A stretch of 5,846 bases of DNA from a virus (Duplodnaviria; Heunggongvirae; Uroviricota; Caudoviricetes), in the IMG/VR virus record IMGVR_UViG_2534681661_000011, positions 1 through 5,846 of that record. One strand, 5' to 3'. The first letter of the stretch is position 1; each line of letters starts with the position of its first letter. Below the pieces are notes generated by a model. The model was not told the origin of the DNA and did no database searches. It saw only the letters and a program-made list of their open reading frames with translations. This document shows, in pieces, positions 1 to 5,846 of the stretch. The translations under genes and the position numbers were made by a program.

Positions 1-1
1 G

Positions 2-223
2 CTGGCGATTACCGGCTTTACTCCGAATGCCCTGCAACAGCGTGCTTCTCATTGCCTGTATACCATTGCCGAAGAACAAGCGACAAACAGTGCTTCAATC
101 TCTGCTTGTCACGCTCAGGGAATGTTAACGGATTTGCTGTTCATTGCGCTGATTCAGCAGGATCTGGAACTGGCACCAGAACGTATTCGTCATAGTGAAG
201 CGCTGGTGAAAAAACTGGTCTGA
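2..223 (+). CDS. yfhH: 3' end of a host transcriptional regulator gene (RpiR-like, SIS-domain C-terminus); partial, start lies upstream of the window
   Basis: Frame 2 is open from position 2 to a TGA at 221-223 and encodes ...LAITGFTPNALQQRASHCLYTIAEEQATNSASISACHAQGMLTDLLFIALIQQDLELAPERIRHSEALVKKLV*. Not in the ORF track because it has no in-window Met. Family and gene name are from memory: the tail resembles the C-terminus of SIS-domain regulators, and yfhH lies immediately upstream of yfhL in E. coli K-12. Not verified by search. Confidence 0.5.
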   Translation: MAITGFTPNALQQRASHCLYTIAEEQATNSASISACHAQGMLTDLLFIALIQQDLELAPERIRHSEALVKKLV

Positions 224-235
224 GTAAAGAATGCG

Positions 236-241
236 CGTATA
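236..241 (+). promoter_or_regulatory. Candidate -10 hexamer (TATAAT) of the native promoter of the downstream ferredoxin gene
   Basis: Perfect TATAAT at 236-241, about 38 nt upstream of the ATG at 279; a GAGAG Shine-Dalgarno-like motif sits 266-270. No convincing -35 element seen, so this is weak. Confidence 0.3.
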
Positions 242-278
242 ATGCCCGCCCGGTTTGTGTTGTTTTGAGAGTTTCCTT

Positions 279-335
279 ATGGCGTTGTTAATCACTAAAA
301 AATGCATCAATTGTGATATGTGTGAAATCAAATAA
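279..335 (+). pseudogene. yfhL: 5' fragment of a 4Fe-4S ferredoxin gene, truncated at the prophage junction (16 native codons, then 2 foreign codons and a stop)
   Basis: ATG at 279 encodes [16 protein letters not shown], which matches the N-terminus of E. coli YfhL as I recall it ([23 protein letters not shown]...). After codon 16 (gaa, 324-326) the sequence reads atc aaa taa instead of the expected Pro-Glu-Cys-Pro, so the gene is broken at about 326/327. Confidence 0.55.
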
Positions 336-523
336 AAACACATTTATTTTCATAGTGATACAGCAATGTGTTATTGAATGTGTTGTTGGATTTATGGTGC
401 AAAAAAATTTTGCATAAGTTCAGCAACACAAAGATCCCCCCCTTTTCTATAACGGTTCATTTGAGACTCCCCCTTGACTCCCTCTTCGAAATTGAAGACC
501 ATCACCTGTACATAATTACAGTC

Positions 524-802
524 ATGGATAATATTATGCGCAGAAAAGAGTCAAACGTTAGCAGTTTGCCGGAACTCACCAATTTTGAGGTAAGCTATTC
601 TCTGGTTACCAATGAAGTTTACTTGTCTGCATCCTTCACTGATAACATGGCCTGTATACCAAACTGGCCCTTACAAGAATTTCCGGATCAACTAATATGC
701 ATTTCTCGAGCAAAAGCTGTTGCCCTAATCGAAGAGCTCCAGAAGACCATCAACTATATGGATGCAGGAATAGTTCGAAGTTCAGGTAGCCTTCTCCAGT
801 AG
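524..802 (+). CDS. Hypothetical small protein (92 aa from the ATG at 524; alternative ATG at 536); may not be coding
   Basis: Sub-region of track ORF 368..802. The first 52 codons of that ORF run across a palindrome and poly-C tracts and look non-coding, so I start at the internal Met (MDNIMRRKESNV...). No good Shine-Dalgarno, several rare codons (aga, ata, cta, cga), no recognisable motif. Confidence 0.3.
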   Translation: MDNIMRRKESNVSSLPELTNFEVSYSLVTNEVYLSASFTDNMACIPNWPLQEFPDQLICISRAKAVALIEELQKTINYMDAGIVRSSGSLLQ

Positions 803-860
803 CTGACGAGTTTTATAATAATTTGATATATATATCGTTCAATATTAGCGAGTACTTATA

Positions 861-1508
861 ATGAGTGAATTTAGTAATCTTTTAAATAGCATACCTGGAT
901 GGTTATCCTCCTCCCTCACAGCTCTAGTTGGTACTCTTATTGGCGGATGGTTTACCCTAAAAGGAGTCACCCAACAAGCTAAGCTGTCTAAAGTAGAGAC
1001 AGAAAGAGAATCCCTTGAATTACAACTTTCAGTATTAAAAGGAGTTAAGGGAGAAGTTTTCACCCTAATCAATTTATATAATAAAAGGATGAAAACACAC
1101 ATTGATAATATAAAACCGGGACAAATGTTGATTCTCACATTCCCTGTAGGGGATGATAATTTCACATTCTATGAGCAAAATGCGAATGTCATTGCAAAAC
1201 TAAATGATTCTGCTAGAGACTCAATAATTAACATATACACATATTCACGCTCATTAATACAATCATTTAAAGGAAACAACAAACTCATTGAGGATTATGA
1301 AAAAATCCTTATTGGCATGGCAGACAATAACAAAGATAAAACCATGTATAAAAGATTACATGATGCAAAAATAAATGTAATGGTAGATTATGCTCAAGGG
1401 ATAAAAAATATTGATGCAGAGCTAAGAGATGCTGTCAATAAGGGATTCGACATTATCGACCAAGAAGTAAAGTCACTACAAATGAAATTAAACAAATTAG
1501 CTTCATAG
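861..1508 (+). CDS. Hypothetical membrane-anchored coiled-coil protein (215 aa); prophage cargo and candidate phage-exclusion or defence protein
   Basis: Clean ORF in a markedly AT-rich stretch compared with the flanking pin and tail genes (by inspection, not computed). One hydrophobic segment near the N-terminus (GWLSSSLTALVGTLIGGWFTL), then a charged Lys/Glu/Asn-rich region with heptad-like character. No catalytic motif recognised. Sits where e14 of E. coli K-12 carries mcrA. Confidence 0.7.
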   Translation: MSEFSNLLNSIPGWLSSSLTALVGTLIGGWFTLKGVTQQAKLSKVETERESLELQLSVLKGVKGEVFTLINLYNKRMKTHIDNIKPGQMLILTFPVGDDNFTFYEQNANVIAKLNDSARDSIINIYTYSRSLIQSFKGNNKLIEDYEKILIGMADNNKDKTMYKRLHDAKINVMVDYAQGIKNIDAELRDAVNKGFDIIDQEVKSLQMKLNKLAS

Positions 1509-1553
1509 AATGCTCCACTCCCTGTTCAATATTTTTACAAGCTTATCAGCCAG

Positions 1554-1586
1554 CCGTGGCACGTTCTTGCATACGACGTGCTACGG
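1554..1586. terminator. Stem-loop between the convergent cargo gene and pin; possible bidirectional terminator
   Basis: ccgtggcacg (1554-1563) pairs with cgtgctacgg (1577-1586), a 10-bp stem with one G-U wobble and a 13-nt loop, followed on the plus strand by tttcattta. Loop is long and the U-tract weak. Confidence 0.25.
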
Positions 1587-1588
1587 TT

Positions 1589-2143
1589 TCATTTATCTCC
1601 GACCGGAAACTTCTTATACAAAGTCGATACGCCAACATCATAAATGATCGCCACCTTCTGGCGAGGAACTCCTGATGCAATTAGTCGCCCGGCCTGCGCC
1701 CATTGTTCTGGTGTAAGTTTGGGACGACGTCCACCAATTCGTCCCTGTGCGCGAGCAGCTTCCAGTCCAGCTTTTGTTCGTTCAACAATCAGTTCTCGTT
1801 CCATTTCAGCCAGGGCACCCATCACATGAAAGAAAAAACGCCCCATCGGTGTGCTGGTATCAATTGAATCCGTCAGACTACGAAAGTTAATGCCTCGTTC
1901 GCGCAACCCCTCCACCAGCACGACAAGATGCCGCATACTGCGCCCCAGTCGGTCCAGCTTCCAGACAACCAGAGTGTCACCTGCCGATAATGTCCTAAGC
2001 AGTTTTTTCAGTCCCGGCCTTTCGGACTTTGTGCCGCTTATCTTGTCTTCAAAAATCAGCTCGCATCCTGCACAGTTCAGCGCATTACGTTGTAGATCTG
2101 TGTTCTGGTCATTTGTTGATACGCGTACATAGCCAATAAGCAT
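1589..2143 (-). CDS. pin: Serine-recombinase DNA invertase of the Pin/Gin/Cin/Hin family (184 aa)
   Basis: Encodes MLIGYVRVSTNDQNTDLQRNAL...GDTLVVWKLDRLGRS...MGRFFFHVMGALAEMERELIVERT...VSTLYKKFPVGDK, with the catalytic Ser in the VRVSTNDQ motif and a C-terminal HTH. I use the ATG at 2141-2143, which has an AGGGGGA Shine-Dalgarno 5-7 nt upstream, rather than the track's ATG at 2179, which adds 12 non-conserved residues. Confidence 0.95.
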   Translation of the reverse strand: MLIGYVRVSTNDQNTDLQRNALNCAGCELIFEDKISGTKSERPGLKKLLRTLSAGDTLVVWKLDRLGRSMRHLVVLVEGLRERGINFRSLTDSIDTSTPMGRFFFHVMGALAEMERELIVERTKAGLEAARAQGRIGGRRPKLTPEQWAQAGRLIASGVPRQKVAIIYDVGVSTLYKKFPVGDK

Positions 2144-2197
2144 GGTAGATCCCCCTGACAAAAGCAGGAATGATGCCATTTGCTCGTTATTTCTGCA

Positions 2198-2223
2198 TTT
2201 TCATAAACGTTGGTTTGGGAGAA
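2198..2223. other. Invertase crossover site, pin-proximal (26 bp)
   Basis: Plus strand ttttcataaacgttggtttgggagaa; its reverse complement ttctcccaaaccaacgtttatgaaaa shares the first 14 nt and the central AA with the site at 4123-4148 in inverted orientation. Matches the gix/cix/pix-type site architecture as I recall it. Confidence 0.8.
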
Positions 2224-2562
2224 GCGGCTAAAAGGAATGTAGGGACAGGGGCGAATCAGATACCTGATATGGGTAGCTTCACGCTTTCTGTTTCAGGTAC
2301 TGGATATCAAAAATTACCATCAGGTTTTATTCTTCAGTGGGGCTCAATCGGCGCACCAGGCATTGCACAGGATGTAGTAACCCATTTCCCGATTGCATTT
2401 CCAAACAGATGTCTGCGTGTTTTGGTCTCACAAGACTACACACCAGATAGCGGGGCTGTTGGTTATATTGCCTGTGCAGGTTTTAGTCCCGACCCGGTTA
2501 AATTTATATCCAGAGCCAGTACTCCTGGCCTCGGCGCTTCATTTTTAGCGTTAGGCTGTTAA
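2200..2562 (+). CDS. Silent alternative tail-fibre C-terminal segment (no start or promoter of its own); would be fused in-frame to the tail-fibre constant region after inversion
   Basis: Frame of track ORF 2170..2562. The coding part begins inside the crossover site: aac gtt ggt ttg gga gaa = NVGLGE, parallel to ENLGLGE in the expressed gene. Continues ...[29 protein letters not shown]..., which looks like a fibre tip domain. The leading MMPFARYF... of the track ORF is read-through of non-coding sequence. Confidence 0.65.
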
Positions 2563-2583
2563 TTTAGCTATATGGAGTGAAAA

Positions 2584-3024
2584 ATGAATTACATATATTC
2601 CGCGACTACAAACTCTTTCTATCCGCTGGAGATGAAAGAGGATTACACTCAAGCTGACTCATGGCCAGATGATGCTGTTGAAGTTGATGAGCAAGTGTAT
2701 ATTGAGTTTTCCGGATTACCGCCGAAAGGAAAAATCCGTATCGCTGGAGAAAATGGTTTTCCTGCATGGTCTGAAATTCCACCACCAACACATGAGGAAC
2801 AGATTGCTGCAGCCGAACTGGAAAAGCAGCAACTGATTAATCAGGCCAACGATTATATGAACAGTAAACAATGGCCTGGTAAAGCGGCTATTGGCCGGCT
2901 GAAAGGGGAGGAACTGGCGCAATATAATTTGTGGCTGGATTATCTGGACGCACTGGAACTGGTCGATACTTCCGGTGCGCCAGATATTGAATGGCCTACG
3001 CCTCCGGCAGTTCAGGCCAGATGA
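2584..3024 (+). CDS. Tail-fibre assembly protein (Tfa/U family, 146 aa), partner of the silent fibre variant
   Basis: GGAG 7 nt upstream of the ATG. C-terminus ...[27 protein letters not shown] is the conserved Tfa C-terminal motif. Lies directly downstream of the silent fibre segment inside the invertible region. Confidence 0.85.
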   Translation: MNYIYSATTNSFYPLEMKEDYTQADSWPDDAVEVDEQVYIEFSGLPPKGKIRIAGENGFPAWSEIPPPTHEEQIAAAELEKQQLINQANDYMNSKQWPGKAAIGRLKGEELAQYNLWLDYLDALELVDTSGAPDIEWPTPPAVQAR

Positions 3025-3601
3025 CATCCGGCGCGGTGCTGGTATCTGTTGCCGTCACCGCGTCAATGTAATCCAGCGCAGCGTTAAGTCGGGCGGTTTC
3101 TGCCTGCGTCAGATTCCGTCCGGCCTGCAATTTCAGCTGAATCAGACTAATGGAAGCCATTGCAGTATCAATCAGTGACTGACGCTGTGCTTCTGCCGCG
3201 CCTACTGCGGCGCTATGCTGTGCCACAGTATCTGTTACCCATTTCTCACCATCCCATTCATCGTATGGCGTTAACGGGGCGATAGTGGTTGTATTTTCAG
3301 GATAATCACCCGGAGCTGTGATTTCTTTCGATTCTCCTGTTTCGGTGCTATAGATGATTTCACCGCGATGGTCTGACACATATTCCCATGAGTTTAAATC
3401 TGCCGAACGGCAGATTGCATAACCAGCCTTATGTGTGCCAGGAGCATCTAAACAGGAATATGCAGGGATACCGACACCCACAGCAAGATATTCAGTTGAT
3501 GCAGAAATATACTCCCGTGTCTCACTGTCATAGTTATAAACGGTAATCTCTCCTGCCTTTGTGGCAATAAATTTACTATTCAAGATGGCGTTATACATCA
3601 T
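2996..3601 (-). CDS. Tail-fibre assembly protein (Tfa/U family, ~200 aa), partner of the currently expressed fibre
   Basis: Start ATG overlaps the stop of the upstream tail-fibre gene (ATGA, 3598-3601), consistent with translational coupling. C-terminus ...[30 protein letters not shown] is the conserved Tfa motif. Size and N-terminus ([11 protein letters not shown]...) resemble TfaE-type proteins from memory. Confidence 0.85.
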
Positions 3602-4473
3602 GCAGCCCTCACAATGTAATTAAATGAAATATTACGTGGGCGTGTCTCTGCTGCACCGACAATACTGGTACTCAACCCCGTCGCTGTTCGTTTGTTATTT
3701 TTATTTCCTTCAATCAGACAGTTGTAATCATCATTACCAATTAACGAATTAGTGGCATCAATACCGTCCGGGGACAAGGCATTAGTTGTAGAACTTAAAG
3801 TCAGCATCTCGTCTGAACTTGGAAGATTTTTTAATGGTATTTCATTGCGAGAAATACCCGCGTAAAAAAAGGACTCATGCCTGTGCGCTTCAAAAGAGTC
3901 ATCCTGAAGACTTAGCAAGGCACGTCCCGCATCCACACCACGCCCGTCATCCCAGCCACGAATAAACTCACCACGTAAATCAGGCAATTTATTTGTCGGA
4001 TAAGCCTTTGCCAGTTCCGGGTATTCTTCAGCAGAAAAAGCGGCACCGTTGCATTTCAGCCAGCCTGTTGGCGGAGTGGCGGAAGGCCACGGAACAGGCA
4101 CGCCAACGGGTAATGCCGAACCTTCTCCCAAACCAAGGTTTTCGAGAGCCGTTTTCACCGTGCCATCCGATTTGATATCACCAAACGGATTCTTGCGGCT
4201 CAGGTATTCAACAGCAAACCCCGATCCCAGCAATTCAACAAAACCGGGCAGATCACCATTATCAAGCACATCCCGTTGCGTTTTGTCACTTACAAACTGG
4301 GCCAGAGCTGCAGCAATAAAGCTGGCCTGCCGAATAACCTTATTGACTTGCGCACTGGATGCTTTCCCTGCTGTAAATCCGGATAAAAGCGCAGGCAACG
4401 CTTCCCATTCCTCCTGCGACATAACATTGGCATTCCGATCAGTTGCAAACGCTTTAAAGTCATTTTTCGCCAT
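3598..4473 (-). CDS. Tail-fibre protein: constant N-terminal region (outside the invertible segment) fused to variable region A
   Basis: Encodes [27 protein letters not shown]... and ends ...[15 protein letters not shown], with a tail-collar-like region ([24 protein letters not shown]). I prefer the ATG at 4471-4473 (GGAG ~10 nt upstream; TGATG overlap with the upstream gene's stop) over the track start at 4491, which has its Shine-Dalgarno too close and overlaps the upstream gene by 19 nt. The crossover site at 4123-4148 lies in-frame inside the gene (..[10 protein letters not shown]..). Confidence 0.85.
4123..4148. other. Invertase crossover site, pin-distal (26 bp), inside the tail-fibre gene at the constant/variable boundary
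   Basis: ttctcccaaaccaaggttttcgagag; inverted partner of 2198-2223 (14 of 14 identical in the inner half, same central AA). Confidence 0.8.
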
Positions 4474-5153
4474 CAGAGTAATACTCCCCATGCCCCTACA
4501 TCAAAACCACTGATGAATTCGTTATCCATATCAAAACCAAAAAATTTTGAACCTTCCGATGGAGTTTCCACCGAAGGTGTTTCAATGCCACCCGCCCAAA
4601 CCCCGGCGGCTTTTACTGTGAGATATCCCTGTTTAATTGCAGCAATTAACTCACGCGATACATCTGAAATATCAGTATCAGGAAAGAGCCAGACCGATAT
4701 CGTCATGTCCTGGTTATCGACTATCTGCATTCGCAGTCCGGATCCTGCTGTCGCCGCGTCAAGAATTGCTGGAAGCGAATCATTCCGTCCGTCCCAGTTA
4801 TTAATCGCAATCTTCGCTTTAAGGATGACACGATAAGTTTCATCGCTGAGGTACATGTATCCGGAATCAGGATCGTATGGCCCCTGCCATACACCCTGAT
4901 CATATCCAAGCCCGTCGGTATCCCAGCTGAAATAGACACCTGAGATAGGCTGGCTGACAACACGGCTACGTCCGATCCACAATCCAAGAATGTCAAGTTG
5001 CACACCAACCGCAGAGTCAATATCAAATGCAGTAATCAGCCCTCTGGTGGCAGCCGCAACATCAATAAGCGGCCGGGTCATCAGATCAACATGTGCAAGA
5101 AATTTAGGTTTGGTGGCGTGGTAGTTCGTGATCAGTTCGGTGTATTTGCTCAT
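4473..5153 (-). CDS. Phage tail/baseplate protein immediately upstream of the tail fibre (YmfQ / Mu gp48 / P2 gpI-like by position), 226 aa
   Basis: Complete ORF whose start overlaps the upstream gene's stop (ATGA at 5150-5153) and whose stop overlaps the tail-fibre start (TGATG at 4471-4475). Assignment is by gene order in Mu/e14-type tail modules; the family was not confirmed by sequence motif. Confidence 0.6.
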
Positions 5154-5452
5154 GACTCCACCGTTATAACGATATTTTCCGGTGTACAGGACGCAGATTC
5201 GTTGTATCTGATATCAATGTTTGATGACGACAAAGCCCCCGGGGATTTCCCAATCGTCAGTTCCTGAATATCGTAATAGCGTGCATTCCCGCCACTCACC
5301 ACGCCAAGATTCGCCGGTGAGTAAATGCGACTTAAAAGGACCGAATCACCAATCATCAGACTATTGATATAGTCGGAAATAGCCTGCTGGATCTGCTGCC
5401 CTATCTGTGAGGTATAACCCGTAAAAACTTTTAATTTAATCCGGGCATAAAC
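5150..5452 (-). pseudogene. 3' portion of the next upstream tail/baseplate gene (baseplate J-like by position), apparently cut off by the IS element
   Basis: Minus-strand frame ...VYARIKLKVFTGYTSQIGQQIQQAISDYINSLMIGDSVLLSRIYSPANLGVV...NIVITVES* is protein-like and coupled to the downstream gene. Only ~100 codons remain before the putative IS end at 5453; the frame stays open into the IS by chance until a stop at 5585-5587. Confidence 0.4.
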
Positions 5453-5846
5453 GTAAGCGTACAGCCTGAACCGTCTGGTCAGAATCTGACGAATTAGACA
5501 AAGTGGTGTCCACCAAATAAGTAGTGGGAACCAAAGTGTCAGATATGCAGAAAAATGTGACTCCCGGCAGGCGAAAAGGCAGCCCTAATTATCCTCCCGA
5601 ATTTAAACAGCAGCTCGTTGCTGCCTCCTGTGAACCCGGGATATCCATCTCAAAACTTGCTCTTGAAAATGGCATTAACGCCAATCTGTTGTTCAAATGG
5701 CGACAACAATGGCGCGAGGGAAAGCTGCTATTACCTTCTTCAGAGAGCCCCCAGCTACTTCCTGTGACTCTCGATGCAGCTGCCGAACAGCCAGAATCGC
5801 TCGCAGAGGACCCGAAAACCCTCAGTATCAGCTGTGAGGTAACGTT
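5453..5846 (+). mobile_element. Left end of an insertion sequence, probably IS66 family; continues beyond the window
   Basis: GTAAGCG at 5453-5459 matches the characteristic IS66-family terminus as I recall it, about 90 bp upstream of an HTH accessory gene. The exact boundary is uncertain without the other end. Confidence 0.5.
5545..5846 (+). CDS. IS-encoded HTH accessory/transposase protein (TnpA/OrfA-like), N-terminal part; open to the end of the window
   Basis: Encodes MQKNVTPGRRKGSPNYPPEFKQQLVAASCEPGISISKLALENGINANLLFKWRQQWREGKL..., the typical RR..S.EFK...V....G.S.........LL.KWR helix-turn-helix signature of IS3/IS66-type first ORFs. No stop within 100 codons. Confidence 0.6.
   Translation, partial: MQKNVTPGRRKGSPNYPPEFKQQLVAASCEPGISISKLALENGINANLLFKWRQQWREGKLLLPSSESPQLLPVTLDAAAEQPESLAEDPKTLSISCEVT

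Follow-up and report, generated by a model that had tools for sequence, protein, structure and literature searches.

Inversion of the G segment of phage Mu and of the C segment of phage P1 gives these phages alternative host ranges. Systems of the Din type carry a Fis-bound recombinational enhancer within the 5′ portion of their invertase genes. Compared by description, the Mu system (Gin, S/U versus S′/U′) and the P1 system (Cin) resemble the locus studied here in that both use serine invertases of the Din family and 26-bp dix-type sites located inside the fibre ORF (site table in PMC3241671), and in that one constant N-terminus is joined to either of several C-termini, for each of which there is a separate Tfa. 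They differ, again by description, in the constant parts and the tips of their fibres; moreover, the core dinucleotide of the Mu gix sites is GA, whereas it is AA in our case (PMC3241671). Closer still is the P invertible segment of e14, a cryptic prophage of E. coli K-12, which comprises pinE, stfP/tfaP and tfaE/stfE (Plasterk and van de Putte 1985, cited by PMC4272514). Mixed orientations of the e14 segment inside single cultures have been published (PMC4272514, PMC12529663).

The DNA analysed here, hereafter the window, is a stretch of 5,846 nucleotides (positions 1 to 5,846 of IMG/VR record IMGVR_UViG_2534681661_000011). It corresponds to the right end of a myovirus-type prophage integrated beside yfhH in E. 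coli. The region of interest, variable region B, is in all likelihood the second C-terminal tip for receptor binding, held in store by an invertible tail-fibre segment of the e14 P type that Pin switches between two states. The kind of device is already known: it is a classical fibre switch of the Din family (Hin/Gin/Cin/Pin), found here in a fuller prophage and at another chromosomal site.

The leftmost feature of the window is the 3′ end of yfhH. A gene for a 215-aa hypothetical protein (861-1508, + strand) lies beyond pin, which encodes the serine DNA invertase (1589-2143, − strand; Pfam Resolvase 6.5e-51 and HTH_7 4e-14). On the other side of pin, the ORF list gives a pin-proximal ORF of 130 aa (2170-2562, + strand) that contains the flagged region. 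It is followed by the gene of the tail-fibre assembly chaperone TfaB (2584-3024, + strand; Caudo_TAP 8.4e-38, phrog_188 1.8e-66) and, facing it, by that of TfaA (2996-3601, − strand; Caudo_TAP 4.3e-31). The fibre gene (3598 to 4473 or 4491, − strand; Pfam Collar) consists of a constant part and of tip A. The constant N-terminal part, the baseplate-attachment end (4149-4491, − strand), was defined from the ORF list and from N-terminal matches to phrog_11303 and phrog_1396. Its start is likely to be at 4473, with an ATG that overlaps the stop of the gene upstream and whose equivalent is used by RefSeq in L007 (NZ_LR882978.1), the ATG at 4491 being the alternative. Upstream of the fibre gene, a baseplate wedge protein (4473-5153, − strand) is identified by Pfam DUF2612 (9e-47) and by its RefSeq annotation; this gene belongs to the same late operon and provides the context that drives fibre expression. 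Between the DUF2612 gene and position 5453, a baseplate J gene is represented by its C-terminal end alone; at 5453 it is truncated by an ISEc22-like element of the IS66 family, the left end of which starts with GTAAGCG. A search for structured RNAs and tRNAs across the window returned none.

The closest complete genome is that of ETEC-2264, with 99.9% identity to window positions 1-5452. There the element extends by over 17 kb more, with genes for the baseplate, tube, sheath and head, and the yfhH site is occupied by related prophages in many genomes. The earlier note had supposed that host-range switching could still matter if the tail module served the cell as a tailocin or acted in a helper-phage context. 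Such a context is not needed, the relatives of this element being full prophages with head genes.

The Pin protein of the window is 97% identical to PinE of e14 (96.7% over 184 aa), and the two genes share 94% of their nucleotides. On the strength of this nucleotide identity, a Fis-dependent enhancer is presumably present inside pin, being expected there by homology only. RefSeq places the start of pin at the ATG at 2143, with a GGGGGA Shine-Dalgarno sequence 7 nt before it; an in-frame ATG further upstream, at 2179, is probably not used. An inverted repeat of 20 nt with 95% complementarity pairs positions 2205-2224 with 4122-4141 and extends to two 26-bp crossover sites. The invertase-proximal site (2198-2223, − strand) reads, on that strand, TTCTCCCAAACC AA CGTTTATGAAAA and equals the published e14 pixR. 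The distal site (4123-4148, + strand) reads TTCTCCCAAACC AA GGTTTTCGAGAG and equals the published e14 pixL. Both are therefore letter-identical to the e14 sites, including the AA core (PMC3241671, Table 3). The number of site matches expected by chance was 0 in 200 shuffles. The distal site is located inside the fibre ORF, where it codes for NLGLGE, and the proximal site codes for INVGLGE within ORF 2170-2562. A Min-type multi-inversion system was also considered and rejected, as the window has just two site matches when up to 3 mismatches are allowed.

The resemblance to e14 extends beyond the invertase and its sites. The gene order is the same, and the convergent TfaA and TfaB genes overlap by 29 nt as do the tfa genes of e14. 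The pair of domains is also of the same composition, with a collar-type tip that resembles StfE and a gp53-like tip that resembles StfP. Sequence identities are uneven along the segment: 55% between A and StfE, 88% between TfaA and TfaE, 60% between TfaB and TfaP and 27% between B and the StfP C-terminus. However, the two elements differ in several respects. The e14 prophage is located at icd and the window element at yfhH. The former is a truncated remnant, whereas relatives of the latter keep a full set of tail and head genes. The baseplate gene upstream of the fibre is DUF2313 in e14 and DUF2612 in the window. With regard to StfP, the N-terminal ~97 aa of the window fibre are unrelated, and the match, at 90%, is confined to ~30 aa about the crossover site. 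Beyond pin, e14 carries mcrA and the window the 215-aa hypothetical gene. Finally, the resting orientation in the window is opposite to that of the K-12 reference.

The segment between the two sites spans 1.9 kb and holds both tips, each followed by its own tail-fibre assembly gene. Inversion was simulated by exchanging strands at the central AA dinucleotides. This yielded an in-frame fusion of the constant part to B, giving a fibre of 235 aa (229 aa from the RefSeq start). The simulated inverted window was then compared with NZ_LR882978.1 (E. coli isolate L3_CS7_E2980) and aligned to it in a single piece at 99.98% over 5452 nt. With the uninverted window, the alignment to the same genome broke into three pieces, of which the middle one (1937 nt) was reversed. 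The constant-B fusion is annotated as such in this genome (L007) and in L008 and L009. Moreover, both orientations are found among sibling isolates. BH100 and BH100N substr. MG2017 have flanks that are 100% identical and carry the segment opposite ways round, and the same holds for RIVM_C036204 and RIVM_C029670. Among 5426 complete genomes, at a required coverage of at least 80%, 17 had the B-on junction and 62 had the A-on junction. The proposal that B is a stored alternative fibre tip is thus borne out both by the in-frame fusion and by the inverted arrangement found in other genomes and sibling isolates.

From this arrangement, the working of the switch can be proposed as follows. The late operon would be read on the − strand, first through the DUF2612 gene and then through the constant 5′ portion of the fibre gene (4473 or 4491 to 4149). 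In the present orientation the constant part continues into tip A, with TfaA after it. Whichever tip and chaperone lie downstream of the site at 4123-4148 would be expressed, and the other pair, which faces the opposite way beside pin, would lack a constant 5′ part. Pin would exchange strands at the AA cores of this site and of its inverted partner at 2198-2223, thereby flipping positions 2224-4122. After the flip, the constant part would run on in frame into tip B, with TfaB next, and tip A would be parked beside pin. We infer that Pin is active in this particular strain and that the switch would change host range. However, since the baseplate J gene is cut by the IS66-family element, the switch may have no virion to act on here. 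Tail assembly is probably not to be expected in this strain, and the segment may flip in it without phenotypic effect on a virion.

Within ORF 2170-2562, an 11-aa leader precedes the site-coded INVGLGE and variable region B. The earlier note had placed B at 2200-2562. The peptide it quoted does lie in this ORF on the + strand, but position 2200 falls inside the crossover site, and the variable part proper starts at 2224 and ends at 2562 (+ strand), with 112 aa encoded by 2224-2559 and the stop codon at 2560-2562. Most of B is a Gp53-like_C domain (PF21882; 2311-2559, + strand), a predicted lectin-type head, matched at 9.5e-15 over profile positions 1-84 of 84, with 55.3 bits against a cut-off of 24.9. 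Among proteins of known structure, the sequence of B matches the short tail fibre gp92 (9zd7, 6.5e-7), gp53 of the Acinetobacter phage AP22 (4mtm, 8.8e-4) and the R1/R2 pyocin fibres 6cxb, 6ct8, 6cl6 and 6cl5 (1.5e-3 to 6e-3). An AF2 model of the B monomer is all-β, with a mean pLDDT of only 58.6. The first four Foldseek matches of this model are 4mtm, 6ct8, 6cl6 and 6cxb; their probabilities are 0.91-1.0, but their E values are 4e-3 to 9e-3 and their TM scores 0.38-0.53. AP22 gp53 (4MTM) and the R1/R2 pyocin feet (6CXB, 6CT8, 6CL6, 6CL5) share with B the Pfam family, are themselves lectin-type heads, and differ from it in sequence (20-24% identity to B), in host and in being located outside any invertible system. 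The gp53 head is described as having an eight-stranded lectin fold that is unlike T4 gp12 (bioRxiv 10.1101/518761). In the R-pyocins, according to PMC6363177, the foot is a lectin-fold domain and adsorption occurs via core LPS.

Variable region A, the currently expressed C-terminus of the fibre (3598-4122, − strand), is of a different type. It matches the Pfam Collar family (PF07484) at 3e-15, with 56.4 bits against a cut-off of 24, in agreement with the tail-collar-like domain originally attributed to it. The collar domain is located at 3961-4104 (− strand), and the fibre also matches, below the Pfam threshold, the receptor-binding domain of T4 gp12. The closest sequences of known structure are the T4 gp37 tip (2xgf, 7e-19), the short tail fibre 9cuy (8e-19) and T4 gp12 (~2e-6). 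An HRH (HxH) motif at 3877-3885 (− strand) is followed by a distal tip insert and then by a C-terminal NFNYIVRAA strand. In the alignment with gp37, AHRHES of A faces AHSHSA, the HxH metal site, and the C-terminal strand faces NIAFNYIVRLA. The collar, the HxH motif and the C-terminal strand are thus common to tip A and to the T4 gp37 tip (2XGF) and gp12 (1OCY); however, HxH occurs just once in tip A, where the distal insert (~100 aa) is also much shorter. The best 120 matches obtained in the homologue search with A were all at least 98% identical, diversity being drawn from a representative library instead. In the AF2 monomer model of A (mean pLDDT 57.6), the collar reaches 85-93 and the distal ~100 aa stay below 50. 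Such a weak distal tip is expected when an intertwined trimer is modelled as a monomer. The first Foldseek matches of the model are 2xgf, 1pdi, 5iv5 and 1ocy.

The earlier note had seen no obvious similarity between B and A, and this view holds. BLASTP of variable A against variable B found none (best E = 1.2), and hhalign of the two family alignments aligned only the site-coded NxGLGE, with a probability of 1.3%; hidden homology between A and B was rejected on these results. The sets of solved homologues found by sequence and of structures found by Foldseek are disjoint for A and B. This absence of overlap between the match lists indicates that the tips come from different structural families: on sequence and model evidence, A and B are members of different fold families. 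Both AF2 monomers are mediocre, so this assignment is carried mainly by the sequence matches to solved structures. The comparison with characterised tips that the earlier note had proposed thus leads from B to gp53 and the R-pyocin foot, and from A to T4 gp37/gp12. Since A is a gp37/gp12-type collar with an HxH motif and B a probable lectin head of the gp53/R-pyocin-foot type, the two virion forms should bind different surface structures. From the different folds and the precedent of Mu and P1, A and B would bind different receptors.

Alternatively, A and B could be diverged versions of one fold with the same specificity, in which case the switch would be neutral. Both are presumably trimeric tips, the C-terminal halves of their Caudo_TAP chaperones are related, and a 'lasso' motif is common to the gp53 stalk and T4 gp12 (bioRxiv 10.1101/518761). 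Nevertheless, the null BLASTP result, the hhalign match limited to the site-coded motif, the different Pfam families, the disjoint solved homologues and Foldseek sets and the published statement that the gp53 head fold is unlike gp12 all argue against a common fold and make this reading very improbable. As to the chaperones, TfaA and TfaB are 41% identical in the C-terminal 73 aa only and their N-terminal halves are unrelated, a pattern consistent with a common module joined to a tip-specific part. Less credible still is the idea that B has been decaying and has lost the capacity to form a functional tip. It draws on the ETEC-2264 genome, where B is annotated as two frameshifted pieces. However, the frameshift is caused by a 1-nt deletion in a CCC run, and two more 1-nt homopolymer deletions are present within tip A of that assembly. 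Because three such deletions occur in one assembly, we read them as assembly errors. Among the copies of B examined, that of ETEC-2264 is the only frameshifted one, the others all being intact, as is that of the window. A search with B gave approximately 390 protein clusters at E≤0.001, the majority of which were full-length. The alleles of K-12 CPS-53 yfdL and of the BH100/RIVM prophages diverge from B in 23% of nucleotides, and the comparison with them shows neither stops nor gaps, with dN 0.14, dS 0.94 and dN/dS 0.15; the ratio is similar for pin (0.09) and TfaB (0.12). By this measure region B is under purifying selection. Degeneracy, which the earlier note had named as a finding that would overturn its view, is contradicted by the intact copies, by the dN/dS ratio and by the 17 complete genomes in which B is switched on; furthermore, the same tip is expressed in the fibres of two P2-like prophages.

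A third reading would add to the switch rather than replace it. In the A-on state, ORF 2170-2562 would be made on its own, as a small gp53-like protein with a short hydrophobic leader that masks receptors and blocks the adsorption of other phages, amounting to a defence under the control of inversion. Calling the stored copy silent, as in the earlier note, corresponds to the classical view, and Kirigo et al. (NAR 2025, PMC12529663) claim otherwise for StfE2 of e14. They report that inversion of the P segment creates StfE2, composed of a short pin-proximal leader and a gp53-like domain, and that StfE2 expressed from a plasmid cuts T2 adsorption; they propose receptor masking from docking, and in the sections consulted the support for this mechanism consists of plasmid expression and docking. 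ORF 2170-2562 has the same position, the same architecture and the corresponding orientation, and its leader is 71% identical to the StfE N-terminus of e14. Conservation of the ATGATG start extends to e14 and to P2-like systems, the invertases of which are only ~80% identical. Over the 11 residues of the leader, the Kyte-Doolittle mean is 1.5-1.8, a moderate hydrophobicity. However, the conservation of the leader can be accounted for by its region doubling as the pin promoter/5′UTR and crossover site. Since the B domain shares just 27% identity with the StfP/StfE2 domain of e14, its target, if any, would be another one. Upstream, promoter signals did not exceed chance: a scan for promoters and terminators that could serve independent expression of B gave counts equal to the shuffled expectation, and transcription would have to start antisense inside pin. 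The AGGA located 0-3 nt from the ATGs is poorly spaced, and the related system L006 has no ORF start. PADLOC defence annotation of the B ORF and of the neighbouring 215-aa gene gave no matches. Taken together, we consider independent production of this protein unlikely. Its more specific form, in which the ORF in the A-on state would yield a free 130-aa gp53-like lectin acting, as claimed for StfE2 of e14, as an inversion-gated superinfection-exclusion factor that coats or masks a surface receptor, is slightly less likely again. If it were true, the many B alleles would form a diversified receptor-masking repertoire as well as a set of fibre tips.

The reading of B as the stored tip of a Pin-driven fibre switch also agrees with its distribution in other prophages. 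The P2-like prophages of strains CREC-2 and SCU-105 and the phage pro483 show the same layout of invertase, A-type tip, TfaA, TfaB and B-type tip. In CREC-2 and SCU-105, a B tip that is 98-99% identical in nucleotides forms the C-terminus of a complete fibre with a P2 H-type shaft. Escherichia phage pro483 expresses a B-type tip (~50% aa identity) and stores, beside its invertase, an A-type tip that is 60% identical to A. These P2-like systems differ from the window in their P2-type constant part of 390-490 aa, in an invertase that is ~80% identical and in their B-on orientation. The A and B cassettes, each with its own chaperone, are portable tip modules common to e14-like, P2-like and other prophages, and are of use in engineering the specificity of fibres or tailocins. 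For annotation, an ORF labelled 'gp53-like domain-containing protein' in this position should be read as the stored half of a fibre gene. Beyond annotation, the wider interest lies in a possible function of the parked copy itself, as the 2025 paper claims for e14. Finally, orientation differences among sibling isolates give rise to assembly and annotation discrepancies.

The prophages of BH100 and of the RIVM strains (L002, L008, L009 and L010) are the same as the prophage of the window and occupy the same site at yfhH. They are 97% identical to it both in the flanking constant part of the fibre gene and in TfaB, the assembly chaperone of the stored B tip. In the comparison with window 2224–4122, their B allele differs from that of the window (77% nucleotide identity), and no alignment over 80% of length was obtained between their A tip and that of the window. 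From these sequence comparisons, otherwise similar prophages evidently swap tip cassettes. Related cassette genes are found in K-12, in the prophage remnant of the CPS-53/KpLE1 region (L004 4701–6065). Its B-type tip, 78% identical to that of the window at the nucleotide level, is joined to another N-terminus, and its yfdK gene is 97% identical to TfaB. The TfaA-like gene is truncated and the invertase is absent from this region. CPS-53 seems to hold what is left of the same cassette pair as in the window, in a frozen state.

The genome closest to the window, that of strain ETEC-2264 (L001, NZ_CP023349.1), shows three 1-nt deletions relative to it, at positions 14380, 15626 and 15768 (window 2381, 3627 and 3770), all located in homopolymer runs (CCC, AAA and GGGG). 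As a result, both the B and A reading frames are broken in this genome and their annotations are split or given as pseudogene. The three deletions are probably long-read assembly errors. At the right edge of the window, the baseplate J/gp47 gene is truncated by the left end of an IS66-family, ISEc22-like element (5453–5846), which starts with GTAAGCG at 5453 and continues into tnpA; the C-terminal ~100 codons remain (5150–5452, minus strand). Among the complete E. coli genomes of the collection, none has this junction.

The convergent tfa genes share 29 nt (window 2996–3024), an overlap which exactly matches that of tfaP and tfaE in e14. Inverted repeat I3 (2934–2951/3060–3077) stems from the similar C-terminal LDY(L/I)DA coding in both chaperones and not from a regulatory hairpin. 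ATGATG and the 11-codon leader, which lie between pin and the crossover site (window 2170–2204), are kept in e14 and P2-like systems (L003, L005 and L011; invertases ~80% identical in the P2-like ones) and are not present in the SCU-105 prophage (L006). Because the same DNA constitutes the upstream region of pin, the reason for this conservation is ambiguous.

Just past pin, at the prophage end, where e14 carries mcrA, lies a gene (861–1508, plus strand) for a 215-aa hypothetical protein with a hydrophobic N-terminal segment (WP_001288820.1). Pfam, PHROG and PADLOC all gave no match for this protein, which may be the product of a cargo or exclusion gene. Between yfhH and this gene, in a stretch devoid of RefSeq annotation, an ORF (368–802, plus strand) matches phrog_17793, a family of unknown function, over residues 57–143 (4.7e-43).
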